Notes under the pieces: generated by a model
The model's database searches: none
What the model saw: only the letters and a program-made list of their open reading frames with translations
Told to the model about the DNA's origin: nothing
Position numbers and translations under genes: made by a program
In this document: piece after piece, positions 1 through 37,758 of the stretch
Numbering within the stretch: position 1 is the first letter of the stretch
Layout of the letters: every line of letters starts with the position of its first letter
Source: a virus
Lineage: Duplodnaviria; Heunggongvirae; Uroviricota; Caudoviricetes
Direction: 5' to 3' (one strand)
Length of the DNA stretch: 38,987 nt
IMG/VR virus record: IMGVR_UViG_2879770953_000004

Positions 1-834
1 ATGAGTGATGGGTGGTTAGATTCTACTATGCAAGCAATAAACGATAGGATTAAAAGCCCATTATGGGGATATATCATTCTTGCATGGGTATGGTTCAACT
101 GGCCTAACTTAGCAATGCTCTTTATGAGTGATGCGCCTGTTAAGTTTCGAATAGATTATATACTATCTCAGGAATATTTTTACGCTCATTATCTGCTTGC
201 TCCTGTCTTTTTTGGAGGTGTGCTAGCTGTTATTACTCCTTATGCTCAATGGTTACTTTCTCTTGCTCAAAAATGGGCTACAGATAAACACAATGAAAAT
301 GTTTATCTTACAAAGGAAAAAGAATACTTGGATTCAATCAGGTTAACGGGGTTAAAGGTTCGGGCTGCCAGAGAAGAAGAGAAAGAAAATGCTAAAATTG
401 ATGCTGATATTAAAGCGGAAGTAGAGCGTGGTAAGCGTGAAGAGCTGGTCACAGAAGAGCTACAGACAGAGAAGAAACTGATTCAGAAAGAAATTAATAA
501 TTTAAAGCAGTTAGTATCTAAAGAAAAACAAACCATTGAAAATATCGAGATAGAAAAAGAGAGACTACAGGATTTGATTGTTGCCTCACTTGAGGTAATG
601 GATGATTTCTTTAAAGTTGATAATAGCCGTTCATTACAGCAATTGAAGAGTAGGGTAGAAGAACTTTTAACAGTTTCTGATATTGAAGCTTCTACCATAC
701 GTAACGCGCTACGACAAAAGAAAGAGCTAACTTCATCACAGACAATGAAAATGTTCGATATGGTAGAGGCTAAAATTAAAAAGGAAAAAGAAAAAGGTAA
801 TGATATAGAGTCGGATGAATTAATTAACCAATAA
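1..834 (+). CDS. Hypothetical membrane-anchored coiled-coil protein; may extend upstream of the window
   Basis: 277-aa ORF starting at base 1. The N-terminal third has hydrophobic helices (LWGYIILAWVWFNWPNLAMLF, LLAPVFFGGVLAVITPYAQWLL). The rest is K/E-rich heptad-like sequence. Confidence 0.5.
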   Translation: MSDGWLDSTMQAINDRIKSPLWGYIILAWVWFNWPNLAMLFMSDAPVKFRIDYILSQEYFYAHYLLAPVFFGGVLAVITPYAQWLLSLAQKWATDKHNENVYLTKEKEYLDSIRLTGLKVRAAREEEKENAKIDADIKAEVERGKREELVTEELQTEKKLIQKEINNLKQLVSKEKQTIENIEIEKERLQDLIVASLEVMDDFFKVDNSRSLQQLKSRVEELLTVSDIEASTIRNALRQKKELTSSQTMKMFDMVEAKIKKEKEKGNDIESDELINQ

Positions 835-2656
835 TGCTATGCCTGTAAATAACAGGACATAAACAGGTTAGTACCTATGCAATTTAACGGTATTTTTCCA
901 AGTATCTATGCAATCCTACACAGATTCTATACAGTATCGACATAGCCCCTTTTTATCATAACTTATTGAAATGTATAGAGAATCTGTAAATCCTCTTTTC
1001 AGGGTAAACTATATCGTGTTAGTCGTCCCTCTCCAGACACTACATATAGTGCTATATACAGGGCTATATAACGGTGTCTATGCAGTTGGTCACTATCAAT
1101 ATTCCCTCAAAGTGACTATCAACCTACTTAATAGTTACCTACGTGAAAGTTATGAAGTGATGGTTATAGTTCCTTCGTATCTCCTCTTAAAAAATCACTT
1201 AGAGACATCTTAATCTCTATACAGAATCTACGTAGGTGCTTATTAGTGCGCAAAACAGCTATTATGTTAAAAACATACTGTATACATATCAGTACTGATT
1301 TATAAGGGTTTTGTGTATTGGCTGATAAGAGGCTATACAGCACCTTGAGAGCATGTCTTATAAGTCATTGACACATAAGGTCACAGAAGTTTGTAGCTGT
1401 TACAGAGAAAACTGGATAGGACTTCACAGAACTACAAAATGTTACAGCTATTGATAGGTTAAATCTTCTTGATAGATGCTTTGAAGTGTGATGAAGGTTT
1501 CTTGAGGTGGGGCTAAACAGATATCATGAAGAAAGTCAATAGTTGGTTATAGATATTTTAACTGCTTTTGCAAAGGGAGTGCTATATCGTGAATCTGGGG
1601 TACTTAACAGCCATCAATTGAGTGTAGATATTTTTGAAGATTATCGGTGAAGGGGAATGTAGAGGGGTTACTACGATATTTATAAAAATTTTCAGACTCT
1701 GAAAAGTTACTGTACAGATTTTATACAAACAAAAAAGGACTCCGGTGAAGGAGCCCTCATCAGGTAGATTTTTAATGTGGCTACTACCATCCACCCATAC
1801 CGCACCAAACCTTACCCCACCGAACCGCACCCTACACGACCTTACCTCACCGGACACTGCCATAGAGAGTGTGCTTGGTTGCTTTGGAAGTAAACCTAGT
1901 ACAGTAAGCCATTATACATATCTAGATAGTAACGTCAAGAAACTTTTAACAGGAGGGGTTCCTATGGTCACATATTCCCTCTCTTCCCACTAAGTAAGCC
2001 TTAGCAGCACCTAAGCAACAATTGACTAACAGATTCGGTAGAGTCTATCTCATAGGTCAACTTCATAAACTCAGAGTTAAGTTACCTTGAAAGATTCTAC
2101 CAAGAACTACACAGGTGTTATTTAGTCTAACTGTGAAGGGATATTTAACGGGAGAAGAGATACGATATAACCCGAAGGGAGAGTATCATCTTAACAATTA
2201 TCTTAAGAATAAAAACTGAAAAACTCTTAACAGATAACTACCTAGAAAGAAGGGAACGATAAGACCAGAGGTAGTGACCTGTTAAACAGGCTGTTTCGAA
2301 GTCTCTTAAGAGTCTGTTAAGTAAGGTCATGTGAACAATCTTACCATTTTGTCAATGCCTTTGTCTTTGACCTAAATCAATAAAATGTATCGTTTGATAT
2401 GGTTTTAAGCAAAATAGCTAAAAAATCTTTTTAGAGGGGCGCTTCGCTTGTGTCACCAATATTATTCTTCCCTGTCTAAGGGGGAGGTTACAGAGGTCTT
2501 TCAAACCTCAATAGGCAAACCGAGGAACACGAAGGACGAGGGAAGAAAATCTATTGTGATTACCTTGAACAACGCCTGTAAAGACTGTCAAGAAGGTTGG
2601 TTAAGAATGGCTCTCCCTTTCTGGGGTTATCGCCTTGTATCTTAGTGATGAAGTGG

Positions 2657-3825
<1,169 letters not shown>

Positions 3826-4099
3826 TGGAGCACCTGTGTTGTTCTGAGGTGAGCATATCACCTCTGTTCAGGTGGCCAAATTCAGTGTGCCACTTCATGA
3901 GTCCAGGAAGTTCTCTGTGAAGGGTCTTGTCAGTCCTTTATATTGGGTGATTACAACTCATTGATGAATAAGGGTTTTTCTACAAGCTATCAACTGGATA
4001 GCTTGATGTGACCAACTGAAAGATACAGCTTTCCGGCTTTGTCAAGAGATTTCACTACCCACCAGCTAAAAATATTTCAGAGGCGGGAGTGATTGGAGG

Positions 4100-4288
4100 T
4101 TAGGATGGGTCTTTGTGGTTGTCTTCACGGCCTCTGTCCTTCAGGTCAAACGACCATTCTCGACCGAACAACCGAAACACGATGAACACCCTGACAATGA
4201 CATAGCGAAGTAGTAAGCCTGCGAACAGACCCACACCCCCACCAGCCCATAAATCAGATGACCCCAATTCTTGAGGGAGGTTAAACAT
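4100..4288 (-). CDS. Small single-pass membrane protein (62 aa), function unknown
   Basis: GAAGG Shine-Dalgarno 8 nt upstream of the ATG. One hydrophobic helix (WAGGGVGLFAGLLLRYVIVRVFIVF) and a charged tail. Lies downstream of a strong extended -10 promoter. Confidence 0.35.
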   Translation of the reverse strand: MFNLPQELGSSDLWAGGGVGLFAGLLLRYVIVRVFIVFRLFGREWSFDLKDRGREDNHKDPS

Positions 4289-4371
4289 TCAATGTACCTT
4301 CTGTGTGCAATGCAAAAACATGTGACCAAATACATAGCCACGCTTCATATTTCCCCCTCTCTCATAAACCC

Positions 4372-4380
4372 ATTATACCA
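4372..4380 (-). promoter_or_regulatory. Extended -10 promoter (TGgTATAAT) firing leftward
   Basis: The minus strand reads TGGTATAAT; a perfect TATAAT lies at 4372-4377. Confidence 0.5.
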
Positions 4381-4384
4381 CAAA

Positions 4385-4402
4385 TGTTACGAAATTGTTA
4401 CG
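4385..4402 (+). repeat. Direct repeat TGTTACG x2 with 11-bp period (candidate operator) between divergent promoters
   Basis: TGTTACG at 4385-4391 and at 4396-4402. The second copy runs into the palindrome TTACGTAA. Confidence 0.45.
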
Positions 4403-4409
4403 TAAATGC

Positions 4410-4438
4410 TTGACATTAATCCTTGAAAATGCTAGTAT
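4410..4438 (+). promoter_or_regulatory. Sigma70-like promoter TTGACA-17 bp-TAGTAT firing rightward
   Basis: Perfect -35 at 4410-4415, 17-nt spacer, TAGTAT at 4433-4438. About 50 nt upstream of the ORF at 4491. Confidence 0.5.
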
Positions 4439-4490
4439 TGTATGTATTTAGTTAACAGAATAATAACATTCCATAAGGGTCAGAATATGA

Positions 4491-5042
4491 ATGAACGACA
4501 GAGAATTTCAAAGGTTTCTTGAAGAGAGTAAGGCAAGAAACAAGCACAACTCCTACGCTTACACAAACTCCCCCACCAGCTACGAACTGCCAGCCTTTTC
4601 CAAAACCGAACGTAAAAACATTGAAGCGCTCATTCGTAGCATTACGCCACGGGTAAGACACATGCCAACACGCAAAGAAAAAGAGAACACTTTAAAGACT
4701 TTCCTGATGAGTTTTGATAGCTACGAACAATTACCATCACGAATTGAAGATATTATTATCGGCACTTGTCGCAGCTTTGGAAGAGATAATTATCACCGAA
4801 AAGTTTTCTATTTACTACGAAATATTGACAAGATTAGCTCAAGCACAATAACAAGTTATCTACAGCGTCAAGCGACCCGATTAAGCCATGAGCTACCAAG
4901 TGATAAATATTGCGCTAACTTAGCCACCATTTGCATGAAAGTTATTGAGACAATTAATCATCATGTGGAAGTGGGCAATATTAGCCTTACAACCAGTGAA
5001 CCAGATTTTGAATTTGACCCCTATATTTTGGAGGAATTTTAA
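4491..5042 (+). CDS. Hypothetical protein (183 aa)
   Basis: First ORF of a tightly packed co-directional gene string. No family recognised. Confidence 0.55.
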   Translation: MNDREFQRFLEESKARNKHNSYAYTNSPTSYELPAFSKTERKNIEALIRSITPRVRHMPTRKEKENTLKTFLMSFDSYEQLPSRIEDIIIGTCRSFGRDNYHRKVFYLLRNIDKISSSTITSYLQRQATRLSHELPSDKYCANLATICMKVIETINHHVEVGNISLTTSEPDFEFDPYILEEF

Positions 5043-5043
5043 A

Positions 5044-5322
5044 ATGAATAAACACACTTTGACCCGTATTTCAGAAGAAGCTTTTCACGAGCTTACCCGA
5101 ATTAAACAGACAACTAACCTGCCTCATCAAACTATTATGCAGCTTGCAATTGCTAAAGAGGTCACTGAGTCGGATTTACTGAAATATCCAGTTTCTAAAG
5201 GTCGCAGACACATCAGAATTACTAAGAACGCTCTGGCTACTCTGAAGGAACTGAACAACTTTAAAATTGATATTGCCCGACTATTGAGCATCAAGATTCA
5301 CAAGCTATCGATGGGGGTTTAA
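5044..5322 (+). CDS. Hypothetical small protein, possibly DNA-binding (92 aa)
   Basis: The ATG lies 2 nt after the preceding stop. N-terminus MNKHTLTRISEEAFHELTRIKQTTNLPHQTIMQLAIAKEV has a strand-helix-helix (RHH-like) appearance. This is inference only. Confidence 0.45.
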   Translation: MNKHTLTRISEEAFHELTRIKQTTNLPHQTIMQLAIAKEVTESDLLKYPVSKGRRHIRITKNALATLKELNNFKIDIARLLSIKIHKLSMGV

Positions 5323-5537
5323 TGCTATGCATTACCTTTGAATACCACACAGATAAAATGATTCGCTACATCTCCGACCTCCTGATTAAAGGAAACGGAT
5401 TCGGTGACATCTTTAACTCAAGAGATATTTTCATTAAAGCCATTGGCCCAAATGAAACACTGAAAGCAGCAGTTAAACTGGAATGGTTTGAGCGTCACAA
5501 GATTGAATTAGGTTATTGGGGTGAGGAGGTTTTATGA
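5322..5537 (+). CDS. Hypothetical protein (71 aa)
   Basis: Start overlaps the upstream stop (TAATG). The stop overlaps the next start (ATGA). Confidence 0.45.
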   Translation: MLCITFEYHTDKMIRYISDLLIKGNGFGDIFNSRDIFIKAIGPNETLKAAVKLEWFERHKIELGYWGEEVL

Positions 5538-5821
5538 AACCTTGGCATGAAGATGTTAGGCGATATTTTACAGAACACCTTACCTATGATGAATCCAGTG
5601 ATTCCCTGTGCTGGTCTGATGGAGAGTCGGTCACGATAAATACCGACGACTACGGCAACAAAACATTTAATATAGGTCGATACACATTCTATGTGAAATA
5701 TGTTGTCTGGTTCCTTTATCATGGCTATCAATCCAATAAGCAAATTATCCATCGAAATGGTAACAGAGCCGATACCAGACCAAAAAATCTTATGCAAGTC
5801 CGAGACTTTAAGAGAAATTAG
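5534..5821 (+). CDS. HNH_3-like small nuclease/homing-endonuclease-like protein (95 aa)
   Basis: Motif VVWFLYHGYQSNKQIIHRNGNRADTRPKNL resembles the ...IDHxNGNxxDNRxxNL signature of phage HNH proteins. Confidence 0.5.
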   Translation: MKPWHEDVRRYFTEHLTYDESSDSLCWSDGESVTINTDDYGNKTFNIGRYTFYVKYVVWFLYHGYQSNKQIIHRNGNRADTRPKNLMQVRDFKRN

Positions 5822-5972
5822 AAAAACAGCTTCTCAGACGCTCTCAATCGCATTCTAACGCAAAAAACTACCTTATTTTAGGGTGGACCACTGTACAGGC
5901 TACCCCTGAAAAAGACTGTTTAGCTCGTTACAGAGCGATTGAGGAGGTCTGGTAAAAAGGAGATTTTAGGAA

Positions 5973-6296
5973 ATGAGAGAATATGAATTACAGATTTTCG
6001 TTGATAGCGACACTGCTATGATGGTGCAAAGCTTCATTGATGCAGGTGTGGAAATTGATTTTGATAAATTACTAAAGCTGATGGCTGATAATGCAGAAAA
6101 CATCTCTGACTTTATTCAGTCGGTGGAGTTTAACGAGCCTCGAATGATGTTACCAATTACAGACAGTAATATGAAAAGATTGGTTATTGAGCAAACGAAC
6201 AAATACAGTATTTCCCCAGAGCAATTTTTGAAAGGTGCTGTGACAATCCTGTACAGCGATAATATTTTGGTTACGGATTCCGTGAGGGTTCACTAA
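5973..6296 (+). CDS. Hypothetical acidic protein (107 aa)
   Basis: AAGGAG-type RBS (aaaaggag) upstream. No family recognised. Confidence 0.5.
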   Translation: MREYELQIFVDSDTAMMVQSFIDAGVEIDFDKLLKLMADNAENISDFIQSVEFNEPRMMLPITDSNMKRLVIEQTNKYSISPEQFLKGAVTILYSDNILVTDSVRVH

Positions 6297-6373
6297 TGGG
6301 CTTAATAATTACTTGGACGTTGCTTGGCTTATTTGTTGGTTGCTGGGTGGGTAACACAGTAAATAAGAATTGA
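6296..6373 (+). CDS. Possible 25-aa hydrophobic peptide, translationally coupled (TAATG)
   Basis: MGLIITWTLLGLFVGCWVGNTVNKN read directly from the sequence. Too short for the ORF track. Speculative. Confidence 0.25.
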   Translation: MGLIITWTLLGLFVGCWVGNTVNKN

Positions 6374-6396
6374 TGTTATCAATATGTTAAAAGCTG

Positions 6397-6425
6397 TTGA
6401 CAAATAACCTTAAGCATGAGATGAT
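6397..6425 (+). promoter_or_regulatory. Sigma70-like promoter TTGACA-17 bp-GATGAT
   Basis: Perfect -35 at 6397-6402 but a weak -10. It precedes a ~340-nt untranslated stretch before the ORF at 6769. Confidence 0.35.
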
Positions 6426-6768
6426 GGTAATAGGGGGAGCAACTCTTCCTGAATTAAACTATTAATCATTCTACATCAATGATAGTTATTCTGAGTTGGA
6501 AAGGTGCAATGCTTTTCGTCATGGCCTATTTAGCCCACACTAGATAGGCTATCTCAAAAAGTCTTTGTTCATTCGTTATTGAATCCTTTGGATGTTCTTT
6601 AATTTCTTCACCTTAGCCCTTTATAGCGTTTTAGTTATCTAGGGCTTTTTCAGCTTTTAAAAAGCGCACTTGGCAAACCGCCTTTTAAGTCTCTTCTAAG
6701 TTCGTAGGCTGTCAGGTGTGCTTTTTAAAAACTGAAACATAAATTATCTTAGAAGAGGAAAAATAATA

Positions 6769-7473
6769 ATGTCTATCCGTGATGAACATGAAATGATTAT
6801 CGAAAACAGACCAAGTGCACTTGATATTCACGAATTAAGTTTGCGTGAATCTTTTGATAGAGCTTGGCGGGAATCACACGAAGTAAATAAAGGTCCATAT
6901 ATTCCACCAGAACCACTTGAGATTCCAAGAGTTGAAATTGATTTTTCTATGAACGAACGGTGTGAACTTGATTTGAAGTTGAAGCTACAACGCCGATATT
7001 TCCAAGCTATTAAAGACTCTCAAGAAGCAATGAGAAGTGTTTACGAGAAAATTCAGTCCAAGCTTGAAGACGAAATTGACGAAATGGCTATTTTGATGGA
7101 GCTTCAAACCAATTCTTATGCTTATTTCTCTCGACTAGACCGTGACGGTTGGGGGTATGACCCTGTAGAGATTGGTAAAGTGATTGCAGATTTACCAGAA
7201 GGTCAAAGAGTTGTTCGTACAGAAAGAGCTGTCAGAGCACCACATCGACTGTCTCTAATTGTTGCTGATAAATCACAAGCTGAGCTTGAAGAAATTGCAA
7301 AAGAGAAACTGATGAAAGCAAGAGAAAATGAGATTAATTTGCTGAAATCAAGACTGGCTAAGCTGATTAGTGACCATCAAGCGCTGGCTAAGGAGTACCG
7401 TCAAGAGTTGGCACAGATTATCAGCTTCAATGATTTTCTGAGTGTTCCACGAGAATTTAGCAAGGCTGTTTGA
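6769..7473 (+). CDS. Hypothetical protein with coiled-coil C-terminus (234 aa)
   Basis: GAGGAA RBS upstream. No family recognised. Confidence 0.55.
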   Translation: MSIRDEHEMIIENRPSALDIHELSLRESFDRAWRESHEVNKGPYIPPEPLEIPRVEIDFSMNERCELDLKLKLQRRYFQAIKDSQEAMRSVYEKIQSKLEDEIDEMAILMELQTNSYAYFSRLDRDGWGYDPVEIGKVIADLPEGQRVVRTERAVRAPHRLSLIVADKSQAELEEIAKEKLMKARENEINLLKSRLAKLISDHQALAKEYRQELAQIISFNDFLSVPREFSKAV

Positions 7474-7496
7474 TTATGAATTAAAAGAGGTGATTA

Positions 7497-7709
7497 ATGT
7501 TTGAAGAACGTTTAGAGACTATTCGGTCTGTTTGCGAAAGACTCCAGCTACAACCAAATAGACAAAAGCTACGAATTAAGAATAACCGTCATTACATCAC
7601 CTCACACAAACCAAAAACACGCAAGATTCCAAAGTGGTGTATTGACCGTATTCCTTCTGATGCTCAAATTATAGGTGAAACGGAACTACATTATCTTGTC
7701 CGACATTAA
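7497..7709 (+). CDS. Hypothetical basic protein (70 aa)
   Basis: AGAGGTG RBS upstream. K/R-rich. Confidence 0.45.
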   Translation: MFEERLETIRSVCERLQLQPNRQKLRIKNNRHYITSHKPKTRKIPKWCIDRIPSDAQIIGETELHYLVRH

Positions 7710-7783
7710 AAAAGAATTGGTTGGGTAAATACGGTGAGAGATTATCGAGTGACATCGGTAGTTTCTCCCTTTTTTGTATGTGT

Positions 7784-7850
7784 GCTACGTAAAATCTGTA
7801 AAGTTAATACCCACACTGAAAAATAGAATTTACGTACAACACGCTTAAAG
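7784..7850 (+). promoter_or_regulatory. Leader cassette L1: 8-bp inverted repeat (TACGTAAA / TTTACGTA) bracketing a TAGAAT -10-like box, followed by CACGCTTAA
   Basis: Arms at 7786-7793 and 7829-7836; TAGAAT at 7824-7829. It is a paralogue of the cassette at 10020-10093. Confidence 0.4.
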
Positions 7851-7863
7851 AGGTGAAATATGA

Positions 7864-9930
7864 ATGAGCAGATTTACAGTTGATAGTTTTATCGTTGAGC
7901 TAGGCTTCAATGAAAACGTTATTAAGGGACTGCAAAGAGTTGAAAAGGCAGCTTTGCAGTCAGCACAAAGAATTGAACGTAATTTGAATAGAGCGTTTAA
8001 AGTTAACCCAAAGAGCATGGATAAGGATTTAACAGCCTCTTTGGGAAATATGGAAAAGAAGATTAACCAGACTTTTAATAAGCTGCAGGAAAGAGCCAAA
8101 TCTACGAAGGTCTTTAAGTTCAAAACTCAGGTTGAAGAAACTGTTAAAGCAGCAAGACAGCCACGAATCAGCGGAAGCAGAGCAATTACAGCAGCGCATA
8201 GCGTGAATATGAGCAAGCTTCGTGACTTTAATCCTATGCTTGAGAAGTATTTTAAGAGCCAATATTACAGCTTAAGCAGTAAATCCAAGACACTTGGAAA
8301 CGAAGCTTTTAATCGTGAGTTAGCAAAGTTAAATCAGTCTCTTCGTGAAACACTTTCTAAGTTTAATAAGACCACCAGCAAAAATAATCACAGTGAAAAT
8401 GCTTCGAATGGTCTGGATGTATTAGCTACAAGTGCAATCAAAGCAGGTACAGCCATTTATAGTTTTCAGACAGCCTTAGAAGCTTATAGGAAGATTATGG
8501 AGATTGGTCTGAAAAAAGAAGCATCACAACGAGCGGCACAATTCGTTTTAGGTGATGAAGGTGCTAAACGAGCTACAGAATTTGTTAAGAATCTTGCTGA
8601 TAGTAGTGGTGTAGACCAGATTGAAACATTAAGCAGTTTTGCTAAGTTTTCCGCTGGTGCTGGTGATATGAATGCAGACCAGAAAGAATCCTTATTTTCT
8701 AATGTGATTGGTACATCCAGATTAATGGGGCTAAGCACCGATGAAATTAACGGGATTTTAAAAGCTTTCGAGCAGATGGCATCTAAAGGAAAGATTCAGG
8801 CTGAAGAATTACGCGGTCAGTTAGGGGACAGAATGGCAGGTGCTTTCCAGTTATTTGCCAGAAGCCTTGGAATGACTACGGAAGAATTAGACAAGGCCAT
8901 GAAAGACGGTAAGGTTCTTTCTAAAGATGTTCTCCCTAAAGTATCCGCTGAAATGGGAAGGATGATTGATAAAGCTAGTGGATGGGAAAAGATTATTAAC
9001 TCTACTCAGACGCAGTTAGGCCGCTTAAGTAATTCATGGAACAATAATCTGGCCTTAATGTTCGATGGTTCACAGGAAGGTCTTGTAGATTTTACAAGGT
9101 CACTGACTAATTTACTTAATTCACTGGGTGGTCAATCTAAAAATCTTGGTGAACATTTTGGCGACTTGATGAAAAGCATGTCAAACGGTATTGATGATTT
9201 AACCACGATTAGCTACCGAGTGCAGGGATTCTTTGACAGAGTGACCCTTGCTTACAGAGAATTAAATGACACTCAAAAAGCTGTAGCTGATGGTATCGCA
9301 AATGGCCTGTTAAGTGCATTAAAGGGACTTGCTGGTATTGTCGCTGTAAGGTCTGGTATTGGTGCTGTAGGTGGTATCTGGAACTTAATTAGGGCTATTT
9401 CCACGCTTGGAAATGTCGCAAATACAGCAGCGGGAAGGATTAATTCACGTTCCGGTAGTGTTGAAGGTGGTAAAGGAAAATTATCTGTAGCTGATGCAAT
9501 TACCAGAGTAATGATTGTCGGTATGACGACGGATGTGATTAACTCCATTGTTAAACCACTCTATGAACGTCAGATGAGTAAGTCAGATAATCCGATTGAT
9601 AAAGTTGTAAGGTCAAAGGTGGAACCCACAGACCAGGCATTAACTGGTGACATGAACTCTTTAGCCGCTGTTTTATGGGCTATGGTTCATGGCAAATCAA
9701 AAGATGTTCCACAGTTTTCACCTGAAGCATTAAATAATCTGAAAGGTCGAGTGGAAACATTCACACAAGATTTAAAGGTTATCAAGCCGTCAGTAAATAT
9801 TCAGCCTCAGACAATCAATATCACAACTCAGACGGTACTTGATGGAAAGGTTATTGATGAAAGAACCACATCGCATATTAATCGTATGCAGGAAGATACC
9901 TTGATTAGCTCAGCTTACCCAGAGGAATAA
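7864..9930 (+). CDS. Phage tail tape measure protein (TP901-type core)
   Basis: 688 aa. Helical N-terminus, core ...LMGLSTDEINGILKAFEQMASKGKIQAEELRGQLGDRMAGAFQLFARSLGMTTEEL..., and a glycine-rich hydrophobic segment (GLAGIVAVRSGIGAVGGIWNLI). Confidence 0.75.
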   Translation: MSRFTVDSFIVELGFNENVIKGLQRVEKAALQSAQRIERNLNRAFKVNPKSMDKDLTASLGNMEKKINQTFNKLQERAKSTKVFKFKTQVEETVKAARQPRISGSRAITAAHSVNMSKLRDFNPMLEKYFKSQYYSLSSKSKTLGNEAFNRELAKLNQSLRETLSKFNKTTSKNNHSENASNGLDVLATSAIKAGTAIYSFQTALEAYRKIMEIGLKKEASQRAAQFVLGDEGAKRATEFVKNLADSSGVDQIETLSSFAKFSAGAGDMNADQKESLFSNVIGTSRLMGLSTDEINGILKAFEQMASKGKIQAEELRGQLGDRMAGAFQLFARSLGMTTEELDKAMKDGKVLSKDVLPKVSAEMGRMIDKASGWEKIINSTQTQLGRLSNSWNNNLALMFDGSQEGLVDFTRSLTNLLNSLGGQSKNLGEHFGDLMKSMSNGIDDLTTISYRVQGFFDRVTLAYRELNDTQKAVADGIANGLLSALKGLAGIVAVRSGIGAVGGIWNLIRAISTLGNVANTAAGRINSRSGSVEGGKGKLSVADAITRVMIVGMTTDVINSIVKPLYERQMSKSDNPIDKVVRSKVEPTDQALTGDMNSLAAVLWAMVHGKSKDVPQFSPEALNNLKGRVETFTQDLKVIKPSVNIQPQTINITTQTVLDGKVIDERTTSHINRMQEDTLISSAYPEE

Positions 9931-10019
9931 ACAATGTTAGAACTACTAATATTTATTGCCACACATGGCAATCTATTAATCTTTATCTAGTATGACGATT
10001 CAACTATGAATAGTCGAAT

Positions 10020-10093
10020 GCTACGTGATTTCTTCTGAACAGATACCAACATCAAAAATTAGATTTCACGTAGCTCACGCTTAACAGAATAGG
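10020..10093 (+). promoter_or_regulatory. Leader cassette L2: 9-bp inverted repeat (GCTACGTGA / TCACGTAGC) bracketing TGAACA-18 bp-TAGATT, followed by CACGCTTAACAGAATA
   Basis: Arms at 10020-10028 and 10066-10074. The central part aligns with L1 (ATACC.ACA...AAAAAT.AGA.TT.ACGTA..CACGCTTAA). Confidence 0.4.
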
Positions 10094-10103
10094 AATAACA
10101 ACA

Positions 10104-10877
10104 ATGTTTGACACAAAGCAAATTAGATACTCAGGTAAAGATGGTATCTATTTTCACCTTAGAGATAATGTAGAATCTTTTCTTGCCTTAACAGCTACTG
10201 AACAGATGGACTATGACTCACCGATGATGGTGACAACTCAGGCTATGCAATCGGGGCAAACTATCACTGATAATGTTCAGAGAGCACCTAAGACCATCTC
10301 TATTAGCGGTGTTGTAGTGGTTGATTCGACGGGTTCAGTTCTATTAACCAGACAGGGGCAACTTGTAGAAACCTTTATTTCTACGGTTGAACAATGGCGA
10401 GACCAGAAGCAAATCATCACTATTGTTTGTAGAGATGGAATAGCTATCACTGATAGTATCATTACTCAGTTTAAAGCGAGTAAAGAGCATACCATTGCTA
10501 ACGGTCTTCGTATTCAGATGACCTTCCAAGGTGTAGAGTTTCGTTCAATCGTAGGTCAAACTGATATCTCGGCTGCTACTGGAAAGACAGCTACTACAAA
10601 TGATGGTGGTGCTACCAGCAAAAAGAATACAGGGAACACTACGACAAGCTTAGGTAACGGTATGTTGATGTGTCAGGAGCTATATAATCGCTCTACGAGT
10701 GAACTTTCTAATGAGCAACTTCAAGCCCGTATCAATTGTGGTAGGAATGTCAGAGTTAAGAACGGAAAAAGCACCTTCTCAGATGCCGCTAATGAGCAAG
10801 CTTCAAAGGTGCTTAATAATGCTGGTACAGGTAGTACTTTGAAGAAGTTTTCGGTGAATCCGAATAAGCGCTACTGA
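10104..10877 (+). CDS. Hypothetical tail-associated protein (257 aa)
   Basis: Lies immediately after the tape measure gene. Has a weak pattern resemblance to post-tape-measure tail-tip/baseplate initiator proteins (..ISISGVVVV.....IVCRDG....[11 protein letters not shown]). The C-terminus is low-complexity. Confidence 0.4.
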
Positions 10878-11713
10878 CGATAGAATCTCAACTATATGAT
10901 AACCTCATCAACATCTATTAAACCCCTCTCAGTGACTTCAGAAAGCGACTGTATAGCCTCTGTAACGTTGTCTGAGGGGTTTTCTGTTATTGGTAGGTCA
11001 ATTACCTTACCGTTGTGAAAAGTCACTTTACATCGACGTTTAGCAGTATTTAAAACGACCTCTTTAACAGCACTTTTGATTATCAGTTGTGCTTCAATCC
11101 TTCCCGCCTTTGTAGTCAAGTCACAATCAGACAAACACCCCACATCAATAGATTTAAGGCGTTGTGTCTCCTTCTCGATATCCGCATCAACCTGTGATAG
11201 CTCATTCTTTAGTTGTTTTAGCTTGCTGGTAATAGCTGACAAATCTTCAATTTCAAGTGATAGCTGTACCAGCTTCTCAATATTGCTTGAGATGTGTTCA
11301 CGGTGTAACTTCAGTGTATCGATGGTATTCGTCGTATCGCTATCAAATCGGTCAAGACGAGATAGCAGGGTAAGCAATGTACCATCGGTTTGCTTACGTG
11401 ACAGCCCTTTAGCACTACAACGGTTTTCATTACGAAGGGGACAGCGATAAATCCCGTTTCTTGTATCGCTAAAGCCTGTGATAATCAGAGCATGACCACA
11501 TTCAGAGCAACGGATAACACCTTTGAAAAGATTCACAGCCATTGGCTTATCTGAAGCAGGTTTTCTACCGTAACGAGCATATGATAGTTGCTGGACTTTG
11601 TAGAATGTTGTTTCATCTATAATTGCAGGATAATAATCAGCTATCTCTTCACAGCCTTTAGGTGTGAAGTAACCAATTACAGAGCGATTTTTCAGAAGGT
11701 CTTGTACTGAGGT

Positions 11714-11718
11714 TTGAC
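11714..11718. repeat. IS2 target-site duplication TTGAC (left)
   Basis: Identical pentamer at 13050-13054. Confidence 0.9.
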
Positions 11719-11729
11719 TGGATTTGCCC

Positions 11730-12635
11730 CTATATTTCCAGACATCTGTTATCACTTAACCCATTACAAGCCCGCTGCCGCAGATATTCCCGTGGCGAGC
11801 GATAACCCAGCGCACTATGCGGATGCCATTCGTTATAATGCTCGAACGCCTCTGCAAGGTTCTTTGCTGCCGTTAACCCGTCTGGTTTGGGCATGATACT
11901 GATGTAGTCACGCTTTATCGTTTTCACGAAGCTCTCTGCTATTCCGTTACTCTCCGGACTCCGCACCGCCGTGTTCTTCGGTTCAAGTCCCAACATCCGG
12001 GCGAACTGGCGTGTTTCATTAGCCCGGTAGCATGAACCATTATCCGTCAGCCACTCCACTGGAGACGACGGAAGATCGTTGCCGAAGCGGCGTTCCACCG
12101 CTCCCAGCATGACGTCCTGTACTGTTTCACTGTTGAAGCCGCCGGTAGTCACCGCCCAGTGCAGTGCCTCACGATCACAGCAGTCCAGCGCGAACGTGAC
12201 ACGCAGTCTCTCTCCGTTATCACAGCAGAACTCGAACCCGTCAGAGCACCATCGCTGATTGCTTTCTTTCACGGCCACTCTGCCTGTATGTGCCCGTTTC
12301 GATGGCGGTACAGCAGGTTTTCGCTCAAGCAACAGCGCATTCTGGCGCATGATCCGGTAAACACGTTTGGCATTGATCGCAGGCATACCATCAAGTTCTG
12401 CCTGTCTGCGAAGCAGCGCCCATACCCGACGATAACCATACGTGGGCAGCTCTCCGATAACATGGTGTATACGGAGAAGCACATCCGTATCATCAGTGTG
12501 ACGACTGCGGCGGCCATCCATCCAGTCATCGGTTCGTCTGAGAATGACGTGCAACTGCGCACGCGACACCCGGAGACAACGGCTGACTAAGCTTACTCCC
12601 CATCCCCGGGCAATAAGGGCGCGTGCGCTATCCAC
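11730..12635 (-). CDS. insD: IS2 OrfB (InsD) transposase
   Basis: 301-aa DDE transposase matching IS2 InsD as remembered. Confidence 0.95.
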
Positions 12636-12958
12636 TTTTTTGCCCGTCCATATTCAACGGCTTCTTTGAGGAGTTCATTTTCCATCGTTTTCTTGCCGAG
12701 CAGGCGCTGGAGTTCTTTAATCTGCTTCATGGCGGCAGCAAGTTCAGAGGCAGGAACAACCTGTTCTCCGGCGGCCACAGCAGTAAGACTTCCTTCCTGG
12801 TATTGCTTACGCCAGAGAAATAACTGGCTGGCTGCTACACCATGTTGCCGGGCAACGAGGGAGACCGTCATCCCCGGTTCAAAGCTCTGCTGAACAATTG
12901 CGATCTTTTCCTGTGTGGTACGCCGTCTGCGTTTCTCCGGCCCTAAGACATCAATCAT
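12593..12958 (-). CDS. insC: IS2 OrfA (InsC)
   Basis: [56 protein letters not shown]... matches IS2 InsC as remembered. An A6G slippery run lies at 12635-12641. Confidence 0.95.
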
Positions 12959-13049
12959 CTGTTCTCCAATGACTAGTCTAAAAACTAGTATTAAGACTAT
13001 CACTTAAATAAGTGATACTGGTTGTCTGGAGATTCAGGGGGCCAGTCTA

Positions 13050-13054
13050 TTGAC
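13050..13054. repeat. IS2 target-site duplication TTGAC (right)
   Basis: Identical pentamer at 11714-11718. Confidence 0.9.
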
Positions 13055-13852
13055 CAAATGAACCCGCTTTATATTGGTTAAGCGTCTGGTGACCTTCATC
13101 ATTAAGAGTCCTGACAATCTCCCAGATAGACTTACCCTCTAACCGTAGCTGAAAGCACCTCTTCACAGTCTCCACTTTCTCAGGGATTACAGAGAAGCTT
13201 TTACGGTCATCATTAAGCTTAAGCCATGCAGGACAACGTTTAGAAATCTTGATACCTTCAGAGATGAGTTCTTTTTTACGGTTCCATGCAGCTTGTATAC
13301 GCTCAGACTTCCTCAAACTCTCCTCATGCGACCGCTGCATTATCAGAATGCTTTTAATCAGAGCTAACGGGTCTTTAAGAGATTCTCGTGTGTAATGTTC
13401 ACCATCGGACAAGGTGACCACATCTACACCAGAGCGAAGAATGTTTCTGAGTAGCTCACTTGCTTGGTCTACATCTTGACGTGACAGACGGTCAAGAGAT
13501 TCTATCAAGAGCGTATCACCAGCTTTAACAAGCCCTTTCTCGATAGCGGTTAAAAAGTCACCTAAGCCACCTTTCAAGTGCTTACCAGTGAACCCACTCA
13601 CCCCCAAATCACGGAAGGATAAATCTTGGTCAAGGTAGTACTCAGGATGAGCCTTAAGCCAGTCATTAACCATCTTAGACTGTCTGCGTAGTGAGTCGCC
13701 TTTGGCTTGTCGCTCAGAACTGAATCTGATGTAGCTGATTACACGTTTCATTCTTTACCACCATAAAAACTAATAGCAGTTGGGCTTGTTATGAGGATGC
13801 TTCATCCGAATCATCTACCAACCCCTAGATTGTATCGCTTTAGGTGGTGTAT

Positions 13853-14275
13853 TTAAACGTGTCTGATGAAAATCACCCGATTAACGCCGCGCTGATGTAA
13901 ACCGCGATTAAGCGTTTGTTCCTCTTCCCCTTTGGCGAAAAACTGTGGATGGCGGACTTCCACACCATAATTAAATTCGCCAGGGAGAGAATCGAGAAAA
14001 TGCCAAAGCGCAGGCAGCTCCCGTGGGCCGAATGTGGCAGGCAGTTGCAGCCAGTATTGCCCAATGCGCGGAGCCAACGGTGACATGCGGGTCAAAAATT
14101 CAGTCACTAAATCATCGCAATGTCGTAATGCTGCCTGATGCGAAATGGTCGCCGGAAACTTAAAACAGAAGCGGAAGTCATCTGTGGTCTGTTCACGCCA
14201 GCGCAGGACAACCTCGGGTTTCGGCAGGGCGTAAAGCGTGGTGTTGCCCTCCACGCAGTTAACATGACGGGTATT
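13853..14275 (-). pseudogene. yecE: Internal fragment of yecE (DUF72 family), truncated at both ends by mobile-element junctions
   Basis: Translation ...NCVEGNTTLYALPKPEVVLRWREQTTDDFRFCFKFPATISHQAALRHCDDL...LHQRGVNRVI matches the middle of E. coli YecE as remembered. Similarity is lost after RGVNRVI (~13870) and upstream of ..RH.NCVEG (~14275). Confidence 0.6.
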
Positions 14276-18879: not shown

Positions 18880-20076
18880 TTATGACCCCTGCGGGGTATA
18901 AAAAGTCCCGTCGCGCATCATGGCGAACAGAACGTCGCAGCGTCGTCTCGCCAGGGCGATAAGCGCCTGATTGTGTCGTTTTCCCTGACTCATTTTGCGG
19001 GTGTAGTAAGCCCTGGAGAGCGGATCCCTGAGCGCGGCGAAGGCCGACAGGAACAACGCCCGTTTGAGAGCTTTATTACCCCGTCGCGAGGGATGCTCAC
19101 CGCGTATTGACGAGCCGGCTCGCCGAGTTACCGGCGCAAGGCCAGCATAAGCAGCGAGATGTGCGGCAGAGGCGAAGGCGCGGCAGGCGACCTCGGTGAG
19201 GAGTCTGGCTGCGGTCCTGACACCGACTCCGGGCATACTGGTCAGGACCGGGTAAAGAGGGTGAGCAAGAACTCGCTGTTCTACCTCAAGCGCCACCTCG
19301 TCTCTTTGCTTACGCAGCGTGATGAGCTGGAGTGCCAGACGTGGCAGTACTACGGCAGCGGCATTCGTGCCGGGAACGACGACGGTTTGTTCGGCCAGTG
19401 CCTGAGCTATGTCTGCTGCAAGGCGTTTACCCAGACGAGGCGCAAGTTTGCAGAGCTGGGCTGCCAGCTTCTTCTCACCCAGCGAAGCGAGTTTTTCTGG
19501 TGAGGGATATCGCTGGAGAAGATCGAGTACCGCCGGGTGCTCAAGTCTCGGACCGAGAACGCGCTCCAGTGCCGGATGTATCTGGGTCAGAAGGCCGCGG
19601 ATACGGTTGCTGGCCTGCGTTGTCTGTGCGGCAAGATCATCATCGAAGCCGCAGAGCATGGAGAGTTCGGCGATTTGCTCGTCAGCCAGTTTCAGCGTGC
19701 GTAGCGCGTGAGGCAGGGTACGGGCAGCTTCGGCAATGATGGCAGCGTCACGAGCATCAGTTTTAGCTTCACCGGCGTGTAAGTCGGCTATGCGGCGCAT
19801 GGCCAGTCCAGGGAGGTATCCGACAAGGACTCCTTCTGAGCGGGCAACGGCGACAGGTAACGCACCGATGGTAGCTGGCTGATCAACAACCAGCAGTATC
19901 TGACCATGTTGTTTCAGGTCAGATATTAGCGACCTGAGTTTGTTTTCGTCGTTGGGTAATGCTTTATCGAACAGGCGTTTACCTGAACGATTAATGGCAA
20001 CAGCGTGATGCGTATCTTTACCGACATCAATGCCGATAAAGACCTGGACGGATTCGCAATCGCTGGATTCGGTCAT
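18880..20076 (-). CDS. IS110-family transposase/recombinase (398 aa)
   Basis: N-terminal RuvC-like DEDD motif (FIGIDVGKDTHH...VVDQP...TDARDA). C-terminal Tnp domain (SMPGVGVRTAARLL...AGLAPVTRRAGSSIRG). Confidence 0.85.
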   Translation of the reverse strand: MTESSDCESVQVFIGIDVGKDTHHAVAINRSGKRLFDKALPNDENKLRSLISDLKQHGQILLVVDQPATIGALPVAVARSEGVLVGYLPGLAMRRIADLHAGEAKTDARDAAIIAEAARTLPHALRTLKLADEQIAELSMLCGFDDDLAAQTTQASNRIRGLLTQIHPALERVLGPRLEHPAVLDLLQRYPSPEKLASLGEKKLAAQLCKLAPRLGKRLAADIAQALAEQTVVVPGTNAAAVVLPRLALQLITLRKQRDEVALEVEQRVLAHPLYPVLTSMPGVGVRTAARLLTEVACRAFASAAHLAAYAGLAPVTRRAGSSIRGEHPSRRGNKALKRALFLSAFAALRDPLSRAYYTRKMSQGKRHNQALIALARRRCDVLFAMMRDGTFYTPQGS

Positions 20077-20270
20077 TCTGTCTCCCTTGTATATGGGTTA
20101 ACCAGATAACCACGGGGAGCAGGTACCGGCATCCACGTTACAGACGGTCCCGGCAAAAGTGCCTGACCTGACCCCTATTAGCGGTTACCAGCGCCCCACC
20201 AGACCCGGTGACATCACCCCCCGGATCATGGACGACTGGGGGCAGTAATCATGCCGGGTCTGGCTGGCTA
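20077..20270 (-). ncRNA. Candidate IS110 bridge/guide RNA region in the 5' non-coding end
   Basis: The minus strand contains a perfect 10-bp stem CCAGACCCGG...CCGGGTCTGG enclosing ~45 nt with an internal CATGAT repeat. The position corresponds to where IS110-group elements encode bridge RNA. Confidence 0.35.
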
Positions 20271-37354: not shown

Positions 37355-37758
37355 TTTTTGGGGGAGGGGGCAATTTTTCCTTAAGGTATGAAAAAAGGAG
37401 CTGAAGCTATATAATAGCTATTAATGCCACTGGTATCAGTGAATCATGTATATAAAAAACTGTGTTAAGGAGGCTGTCCATTAGCGGTTTTTTATTCTTC
37501 TGGAACCGCGGCATCTTTGCGTATCTTTTTGTCTTCTCACCGTCTGGTCGGTGTTTTGCTGAGACTGCTAATTTCCTGTCTTTGCTAGTGCTGTACTGGT
37601 ACTGCCCAATCATGATTGGCGGGGGCGGGCGGAGTTGAGACCGCAGACACGTCGTATGCAAGAACGTGCTGCGGCTGGCTGGTGAACTTCCGATAGTGCG
37701 AGTATTGAATGATTTCCAGCCGTTACTGATTTTACGTGCTAATTAGTTGGATTTGCCC

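Follow-up and report, generated by a model that had tools for sequence, protein, structure and literature searches.

The stretch of DNA analysed here, called the window throughout, comprises the 38,987 nt of the viral record IMGVR_UViG_2879770953_000004. Its first part, from position 1 to about 13,750, is an AT-rich island (35-44% GC) that encodes a large serine integrase and also carries a tape-measure gene followed by a gene for a Dit-like baseplate hub protein. Each of these two genes is preceded by a short cassette, denoted L1 and L2, respectively, and the two cassettes are the subject of this analysis. Their letters were read directly from the window sequence. The locus consists of the following features:

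7736-7775, plus strand: intrinsic terminator (13-pair hairpin and T run), closing the operon 4491-7709 and lying immediately 5' of L1
7783-7848, plus strand: cassette L1, TGCTACGTAAAATCTGTAAAGTTAATACCCACACTGAAAAATAGAATTTACGTACAACACGCTTAA
7784-7797, plus strand: left arm of L1
7807-7816, plus strand: mid element of L1, ATACCCACAC
7819-7823, plus strand: A-tract of L1
7824-7829, plus strand: hexamer of L1, TAGAAT
7825-7837, plus strand: right arm of L1
7840-7848, plus strand: box CACGCTTAA of L1, directly abutting the Shine-Dalgarno sequence
7850-7856, plus strand: Shine-Dalgarno sequence GAGGTGA
7864-9930, plus strand: tape-measure gene, 688 aa
10019-10084, plus strand: cassette L2, TGCTACGTGATTTCTTCTGAACAGATACCAACATCAAAAATTAGATTTCACGTAGCTCACGCTTAA
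10020-10033, plus strand: left arm of L2
10043-10053, plus strand: mid element of L2, ATACCAACATC
10060-10065, plus strand: hexamer of L2, TAGATT
10061-10074, plus strand: right arm of L2
10076-10084, plus strand: box CACGCTTAA of L2
10104-10877, plus strand: gene for the Dit-like baseplate hub, 257 aa (Pfam Dit_like, phrog_3721)

L1 and L2 are true paralogs and most likely represent a portable regulatory module of about 66 bp that belongs to a satellite-like chromosomal island. In a MAFFT alignment of stretches of ~100 nt the mean column identity is 76%, the local alignment of both cassettes scores 26 (compared to 8.3 +/- 1.7, and at most 19, in 2000 shuffles), and within the island the best non-self match of L1 is L2, and vice versa. 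The paralogy proposed in an earlier inspection of the letters, here called the sequence-only reading, is borne out by these results, and so are the positions it gave for the hexamers TAGAAT and TAGATT and for the box CACGCTTAA. The arrangement TACGT-N30-55-ACGTA is found in 2 places in the 39 kb, namely L1 and L2 (0.33 expected), and arm words of the type [CT]TACGT[AG]A occur 9 times in the island (1.2 +/- 1.2 expected). Both cassettes are oriented toward their own downstream genes and end, on the 3' side, at the ribosome-binding site; the box of L1 lacks the trailing CA. The cores of the arms are exactly complementary, TACGTAAA (7786-7793) with TTTACGTA (7829-7836) in L1 and GCTACGTGA (10020-10028) with TCACGTAGC (10066-10074) in L2. 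The inverted repeat had been described as 8-9 bp long and as bracketing the hexamer. It is longer, reaching 14 bp and being perfect in some relatives (GCTACGTGAAATCT / AGATTTCACGTAGC), and the '-10-like' hexamer, while correctly placed, therefore overlaps the inner part of the right arm.

The conservation of the module was assessed on 50 distinct cassette variants, which an exact-pattern scan recovered from viral and metagenome contigs as well as from loci of E. coli, E. albertii and Citrobacter; an internally deleted copy (L129) is not among them. The arm-to-arm distance is identical in 46 of the 50 variants, and in all 50 the hexamer stops two bases short of the right-arm ACGT. The hexamer follows the pattern TAnnnT in 48 variants (TATTTT in 24, TAGAAT in 14, TAGATT in 8, TAGTTT and TAATTT in 1 each) and reads CAGAAT in the other 2, compared to a background of 0.4% for TAnnnT at other positions of the cassette interior. 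Its first T, the A and the final T are near-invariant and of high information, whereas variation is seen at its middle positions and across most of the interior. Near-invariant T, A and final T around a variable middle are the signature of a -10 element. The register of the hexamer is kept even in a divergent reverse-oriented copy (TAACTT) and in a distant cassette-like sequence (L031, TATTTT). All 50 variants preserve an intact 3' half of the cassette, made up of the mid element ATACCCAC, A-tract, hexamer, right arm and box. Variation affects the left arm, which is shifted by +27 nt in copies of the L002 type, owing to the insertion of a 27-nt mini-hairpin after the left arm of L1, and by -14 nt in L098, owing to a deletion at that place. 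No -35 element is conserved across the variants, the region in question differing by allele (AAGCTA, GAACAG/TGAACA), and a scan for consensus sigma-70 promoters calls neither L1 nor L2, in line with the weak or absent -35 noted earlier from the letters. The module is also better conserved than its coding flanks. Across 1485 pairs the cassette is 83.6% identical, compared to 76.6% for the 5' end of the Dit-like gene and 69.5% for the 3' end of the tape-measure gene, and it is still 81% identical where the Dit-like gene is just 50-70% identical.

L1 is not present in every island. It forms a discrete insertion with GTATG on one side and AGGTG on the other, and is absent in Citrobacter L006 and in the avian pathogenic E. 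coli (APEC) O18 island L008; in L129, L1 is internally deleted, with loss of the hexamer and the right arm. A short module with terminal-like inverted repeats, present or absent at exact borders, could in principle be a miniature inverted-repeat element that spreads selfishly, or a duplication that is neutral, in either case without function for the island. We consider this very improbable, as no target-site duplication was seen at the insertion borders inspected, orientation and position relative to the genes are constant, and conservation of the cassette exceeds that of the adjoining coding DNA. In addition, copies are few and confined: the cassette matches inspected all belong to the island family, and among the 40 matches listed there are up to 6 places per genome, all of them chromosomal, and none lies under an annotated feature.

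A profile hidden Markov model (HMM) finds further copies, including a full cassette in reverse orientation that follows a terminator in the left part of some islands and has the box on both sides; such a terminator precedes the reverse-oriented copy in L008, L086 and L132. Copies and conservation in relatives, which the sequence-only reading had named as its check, are both found, in the form of the 50 variants, the additional HMM copies and the conservation above the coding flanks. The same check had also pointed to the DNA left of the window, where almost no island sequence lies: in the relative L002, the start codon that opens the first gene of the island is aligned with base 1 of the window. 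Related words had been noted within the window near 1139, 1232 and 4398, and two features are needed to place them:

1139-1245, plus strand: cassette remnants inside an iteron-like non-coding region
4410-4438, plus strand: canonical sigma-70 promoter (TTGACA-17-TAGTAT with a TG ahead), conserved in five islands and not a cassette

The words at 1139 and ~1229 are real remnants. At 1139, CCTACGTGAAAGTTAT corresponds in reverse complement to the right arm belonging to the reverse copy, which is complete in other islands, and 1216-1245 is a forward half cassette, TATACAGAATCTACGTAGGTGCTTATTAG. The word at 4398 (TTACGT) is specific to the window and not conserved in relatives. Two candidate links between the cassettes and the neighbouring sigma-70 promoter were rejected. 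A shared operator, TTACGTAAA beside the promoter, is not conserved in four other islands, and a core homology (TGAAAA..TAGnAT..TTAACAGA) receives no support from MAFFT and amounts to a weak resemblance only.

The region around the remnants deserves a separate remark. Positions 860-1340 of the window form a conserved non-coding region with about eight CTAT(G/A)CA(G/A) repeats, in which the half cassettes are embedded; it may be the origin of the island or a regulator-binding array. Two cassette-like sequences were also recorded that share the arm sequence, the arm spacing and the box with the cassette and have unrelated interiors, namely L133 7518-7590 and L031 69-136 (both on the minus strand). 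The former, a chromosomal sequence with a perfect 17-bp repeat, is flanked by convergent NlpC/P60 and GGDEF-EAL genes; the latter precedes an open reading frame (ORF) on an AT-rich metagenome contig. They may represent a wider family, or an ascertainment effect, given that a match to the search pattern required both the right arm and the box. A further observation concerns a 'long' leader of L2, found at L007 11073-11148 and in many loci, which adds ~70 nt between L2 and the hub gene and contains a hairpin, CAAAGGCTTGG...CTAAGCCTTTG, enclosing a mini ORF of 5 codons, ATGATTAAAATACACTAA.

The cassettes do not stay with one gene. The interior exists in at least 4 alleles, and the same allele is found at the L1 position in one island and at the L2 position in another; among 25 loci with both cassettes, L1 type, ends of the tape-measure gene, L2 type and leader of the Dit-like gene are combined in 20 different ways. 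The cassettes lie at the borders of the shuffled tape-measure and hub modules, and the sequence mosaic points to recombination between copies. Since the copies are alike, they offer places where islands exchange gene modules. Separately, the same 27-nt mini-hairpin, TGATTCGGATAAGAATTATCCTCATGA, flanked by TGA repeats, is found right after the left arm in L002 (15119-15145) and in L008 (~2425-2455, minus strand), in cassettes that occupy two different positions in the two islands. Either cassettes convert each other or the insert itself is mobile.

Such a distribution raises the question whether the cassettes are DNA sites for recombination or for some other non-transcriptional use, such as crossover or cleavage by an HNH endonuclease or recombinase, or binding in replication or packaging, with the promoter look being incidental. 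The exact coincidence with module borders, the movement of alleles between the L1 and L2 positions and the occurrence of the same 27-nt insertion in cassettes at different positions would fit, as would the extra copies inside the iteron-like region; the islands encode HNH and HNH-AP2 endonucleases, and some a small serine recombinase. No similarity to known hix/gix or att sites was noticed, though no formal comparison was made. Strict orientation toward the genes, a fixed place beside the ribosome-binding site and the conservation of TAnnnT are not expected of a recombination site. Exchange between phages and satellites at borders formed by homing endonuclease genes (HEGs) is documented (PMC10055350), but homologous recombination between conserved promoter modules suffices for the shuffling without any dedicated enzyme, as proposed for the PeSL cassettes of T4-like phages (PMC2839356). 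Taken together, we regard a primarily non-transcriptional site as distinctly unlikely.

We infer instead, with about even confidence, that the cassette is a portable, factor-dependent promoter without a -35 element, furnished with operator-like arms, which also marks recombination junctions. The proposed promoter would consist of TAGAAT or TAGATT as the -10 hexamer, an A-tract spanning roughly -17 to -13 and an element of the ATACCCAC type at about -29 to -20, the usual place of a -35 element. Transcription would start inside the right arm, and the transcript would begin with the conserved ...ACGUAGCUCACGCUUAA(C)AG and run into the ribosome-binding site. The arms with their ACGT core would act as operator-like sites, the right arm over the start point and the left arm near -48, with the candidate operator words CTACGTGA/TCACGTAG. 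A promoter without a -35 element needs a factor, and the protein that binds the arms might be encoded by the island (e.g. a tandem ribbon-helix-helix protein, see below) or be supplied by an infecting phage of the Ounavirinae. L1 and the reverse copy directly follow terminators, which puts cassettes at the heads of transcription units. In this way the tape-measure and hub genes, once captured, would each be started under the control of the module, independently of the sigma-70 operon terminated ahead of L1.

Several points weigh against the factor-dependent promoter. Promoter activity is read from the letters of the cassette, and since the inner repeat extends into the hexamer, the latter may be conserved in part on account of the repeat and not of a role as -10 element. 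The consensus scan misses both L1 and L2, so that they cannot be ordinary constitutive promoters. The island in Citrobacter L006 and the APEC O18 island L008 keep the tape-measure gene without L1, and the reverse cassette of L008 points into ~230 nt of repeat-rich non-coding DNA with no protein gene downstream (this copy may drive a non-coding RNA). The left-arm shifts of +27 and -14 nt break the helical phase, which argues against a rigid two-site loop, and the arm-binding protein is a candidate only. Two more specific assignments were tried and dropped. A promoter for an extracytoplasmic function (ECF) sigma factor (GAAC ... CGTA) would have the wrong spacing (28 nt), and two allele types have no GAAC; a site for integration host factor (IHF) in the A-rich part does not fit and is not conserved, as judged by eye.

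The candidate for an island-encoded binder is the following gene:

5044-5322, plus strand: island gene for a tandem ribbon-helix-helix (RHH) protein of 92 aa, predicted by AlphaFold2 (pLDDT 91.6) to contain the order beta-alpha-alpha twice

Its best matches in the PDB (Foldseek) are chains of the F-plasmid relaxosome, followed by DndE and the viral regulator AvtR, with E-values of 0.07 or weaker and TM scores of 0.46-0.63 across the top DNA-binding matches; we take the relaxosome chains to be TraY. Homologs of the protein were found only in Escherichia, Salmonella and Citrobacter. On the basis of the predicted fold, a tandem RHH protein is a plausible candidate for binding the pseudo-palindromic arms with their ACGT core.

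The inverted repeat also admits an explanation at the level of RNA. In a read-through transcript the arms would pair to a stem of 8-14 bp with an A-rich loop of ~25-35 nt, followed by single-stranded CACGCUUAA, and the structure might bind a regulator, stabilise the RNA or direct its processing, or control translation of the next gene. The plus-strand folds are more stable than those of shuffled sequences (L2 -18.0 kcal/mol, z -5.1; L1 -10.6 kcal/mol, z -2.65; L2 of L007 -12.3 kcal/mol, z -2.75), and minus-strand folds are weaker. The loop tolerates the additional 27 nt, themselves a small hairpin, and the loss of 14 nt, as is expected of a hairpin loop, and L2, having no terminator upstream, is probably co-transcribed with the tape-measure gene. 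L1, however, follows an efficient-looking terminator. Covariation, counted for 14 stem pairs on 40 variants and compared to 500 shuffles, does not exceed chance: 83.4% of the pairs are formed, a value that 97 of the 500 shuffles reach (82.4% in the shuffles), and the covariation score is 0.098 compared to 0.087. Half of the 14 pairs carry no information, six being invariant and a seventh variable on one side only, and the outer and inner pairs are often broken. At arm position 8 the combinations are G-C in 16, G-U in 23 and A-U in 1 of the variants and never A-C, a pattern that seems to favour pairing and is uninformative because the left base is G in 39 of the 40 sequences. Rfam 15 gives no relevant match at E <= 5 in positions 1-11800, and elsewhere just generic miRNA-hairpin matches. 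Classical RNase III sites have longer stems than the cassette provides, and the lack of a U-tract after the stem speaks against an intrinsic terminator. A structural role alone would moreover leave the fixed register of TAnnnT and the conserved 3' half of the 'loop' unexplained. Of the RNA stem-loop suggested by the sequence-only reading the inverted repeat itself stands and is its positive support, with nothing gained from covariation or Rfam; a function in the transcript is possible, and we hold it to be unlikely.

The cassette resembles the boxA-boxB arrangement of lambda nut and rrn antitermination signals in having a hairpin beside a short single-stranded motif that is rich in C/U and has UUAA(C)A at its end. 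The consensus of boxA is CGCUCUUA or UGCUCUUUAACAA. The likeness of the box to boxA, which had been put forward from the letters, does not hold: CACGCUUAA lacks the UC, i.e. two core bases, of CGCUCUUA and matches 6 of 9 positions of the 3' part of rrn boxA. The box lies 3' of the hairpin, the loop has ~25-35 nt and is not a pentaloop, and L1 is situated immediately downstream of the terminator 7736-7775, not upstream of it as an antitermination site would be.

The origin of the two genes served by the cassettes bears on the question of who controls them. The hub protein has ~73% amino-acid identity to proteins of Ounavirinae (SUSP2-type phages), and the DNA of the tape-measure region is ~73-74% identical to ORF66-ORF68 of Felix O1 (ORF67 being the tape-measure gene), in three pieces that cover 22% of a 4.3-kb query. 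Judged from this identity, the island tape-measure and Dit-like hub genes are derived from Ounavirinae (Felix O1, SUSP2). In both Felix O1 and SUSP2 the two genes abut without a spacer; the cassettes are therefore specific to the island and were added there. The island, of ~12 kb, looks like a phage satellite of Felix O1-type phages, with a serine integrase, HNH endonucleases and just two tail genes.

Given this origin, the cassettes could be copies of late promoters of the helper phage that are read only by the apparatus of an infecting Felix O1-type phage, as P4 responds to Ogr of P2. Both genes served are helper-derived tail genes, and the absent -35 element implies that some factor is required. 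The transcription timing of Felix O1 leaves room for such a helper factor: according to the genome paper the temporal control of transcription is unknown, and no polymerase-modifying factors were recognised (PMC3185647). In the phages themselves, however, no such model was found. A blastn search of both cassettes against 50,697 phage records yields noise only, pattern and profile HMM scans find no cassette or sub-motif in the intergenic DNA of Felix O1, and reading by eye only, none was found in selected early and late intergenic regions of SUSP2. The regions upstream of late genes in Felix O1 and SUSP2 look different, and the repeated cassettes of the Ounavirinae have another sequence (see below). 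A copied helper promoter is thus quite unlikely. The earlier proposal of activator-dependent late promoters accordingly survives in part. Its promoter half agrees with the fixed register of the hexamer, the missing -35 element, the terminator before L1 and the orientation toward the genes, while 'late', in the sense of a helper-phage promoter, finds no support in the searches of Felix O1 and the phage records.

A more far-reaching version of the factor-dependent promoter would make the cassette the sensor switch of a satellite that parasitises Felix O1-type phages. A protein produced in the course of helper infection, either from the phage or the RHH protein of the island, would recognise the arms and ATACCCAC and turn on the satellite tape-measure and hub genes, and the switch would be portable before any captured helper gene. 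Since the satellite tape measure has 688 aa compared to 742 aa in Felix O1, the satellite tail parts could redirect or sabotage tail assembly of the helper. We put this forward as a speculative extension that is rather unlikely to hold in full. If the cassette does respond to infection, a small island has wired stolen phage tail genes into its own control circuit, and reporter fusions would offer a handle on the signals of Felix O1-type infection, for which the timing of transcription is unexplained (PMC3185647).

The Ounavirinae have short intergenic cassettes of their own. In Felix O1 (8629-8717, 9229-9316, 10300-10387) and in SUSP2 (19839-25491) sequences of ~87 nt precede consecutive small early genes. 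Their layout consists of TTTACA, an inverted repeat GGGGYTTA...TAAGCCCC enclosing a -10 element (TAAAGT, TAAGAT or TAGTAT), and a leader CCTAAACTGGAGATTC. They share with the island cassette a repeat that encloses the -10 element and differ from it in a good -35 element (TTTACA), G/C-rich arms, an unrelated sequence and another leader (CCTAAACTGGAGATTC). By analogy they resemble PeSLs. Another observation concerns dense arrays of the repeat TGTTAAG/CTGTTAAG in a large non-coding region, possibly the origin, of Felix O1 (12306-13930) and SUSP2 (71200-72300). The island has a small cluster of the same word at 1610, 2197, 2233, 2279 and 2314, and the tail of L2 contains CTTAACAG, the reverse complement of CTGTTAAG. 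To regard the box as a Felix O1 iteron is a lead only, because L1 has no CAG and the word itself is a common one.

The remaining context of the window is as follows. The sigma-70 promoter at 4410-4438 serves the operon 4491-7709, which consists of small genes with unassigned function and an HNH gene; the terminator that separates this operon from L1 is kept in relatives with a different loop sequence. At the beginning of the tape-measure gene two ATGs overlap, of which the one at 7860 is out of frame and followed by a stop after 7 codons; the real start is at 7864. The island integrase gene is split by an insertion sequence of 1331 bp (11719-13049), an identical second copy of which begins at 37748; with ORFs of 136 aa and 301 aa it is presumably IS2-like. 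Another insertion sequence, of the IS3 family, lies at ~2650-3900 in the left part of the island. These insertions, one inside the integrase gene and one in the left part, suggest that this copy of the island is immobilised. Relatives of the island use one of two integration sites, either yecE (DUF72) or the interval from lafU to dinB, and matches to island DNA occur in 480 of 5426 complete E. coli genomes (~9%), with at least 80% query coverage in just 60. Positions 14000-37700 of the window, with a GC content of 50-60% and long plus-strand ORFs, are probably another prophage. In the literature we found no description of this Ounavirinae-related island or of its cassette, nor a link between a satellite and Felixounavirus. 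Other E. coli satellites with a tape-measure and a baseplate protein match phi92-like phages and not Ounavirinae (Barth et al., PMC10055350).

We finally compare the cassette with known systems. The sequence-only reading knew of no described element with this architecture. For the sequence family this still holds, while for the function there is a close precedent in the PeSL cassettes (PMC2839356). PeSLs of T4-like phages (Arbiol et al. 2010, PMC2839356; Comeau et al. 2014, PMC4122927) are likewise short conserved intergenic modules before successive genes, which combine a stem-loop/terminator with promoter elements, provide each gene module with its own expression signal and form junctions for shuffling by homologous recombination. 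As a repeated module before genes, the island cassette is present in the window with two complete copies and two remnants. PeSLs have consensus sigma-70 -35 and -10 boxes and a G/C-rich terminating stem-loop (PMC2839356, PMC4122927). The island cassette, in contrast, has no -35 element, its repeat brackets the putative core promoter, no U-tract follows, and its sequence is not similar to that of PeSLs. At L1 and at the reverse copy a hairpin distinct from the cassette and upstream of it serves as terminator, and L2 has none. The cassette would thus work like a PeSL; with no consensus -35/-10 promoter, and no terminator stem-loop evident in its own repeat, it is not a member of the class.

Two further systems offer analogies for the dependence on a factor. 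The late promoters of P4 and P2 depend on Ogr/Delta, have a poor -35 element, a small activator and dyad symmetry, and are coupled to the life cycle of the helper. Their dyad, TGT-N12-ACA near -55, lies upstream of the core promoter and also occurs in the helper genome. The putative operator arms of the island cassette, in contrast, flank the core promoter (~-48 and ~+1), and the motif was not found in the helper-type phages examined. T4 middle promoters combine a MotA box at -30 with a sigma-70 -10 element. The cassette is similar to these, and to other phage promoters without a -35 element, in having a TAnnnT -10 element and, in place of the -35 element, another element (ATACCCAC, about -29 to -20), and differs in that this upstream element has another sequence. 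Among ten island ORFs scanned with Pfam and PHROGs, the 92-aa RHH ORF lying outside them, no homologs of MotA or AsiA were identified, and factors of the MotA/AsiA type are also reported to be lacking in the Ounavirinae (PMC3185647). The comparison overturns no principle; it extends the idea of a mobile regulatory cassette from T4-like phages to a satellite-like element.

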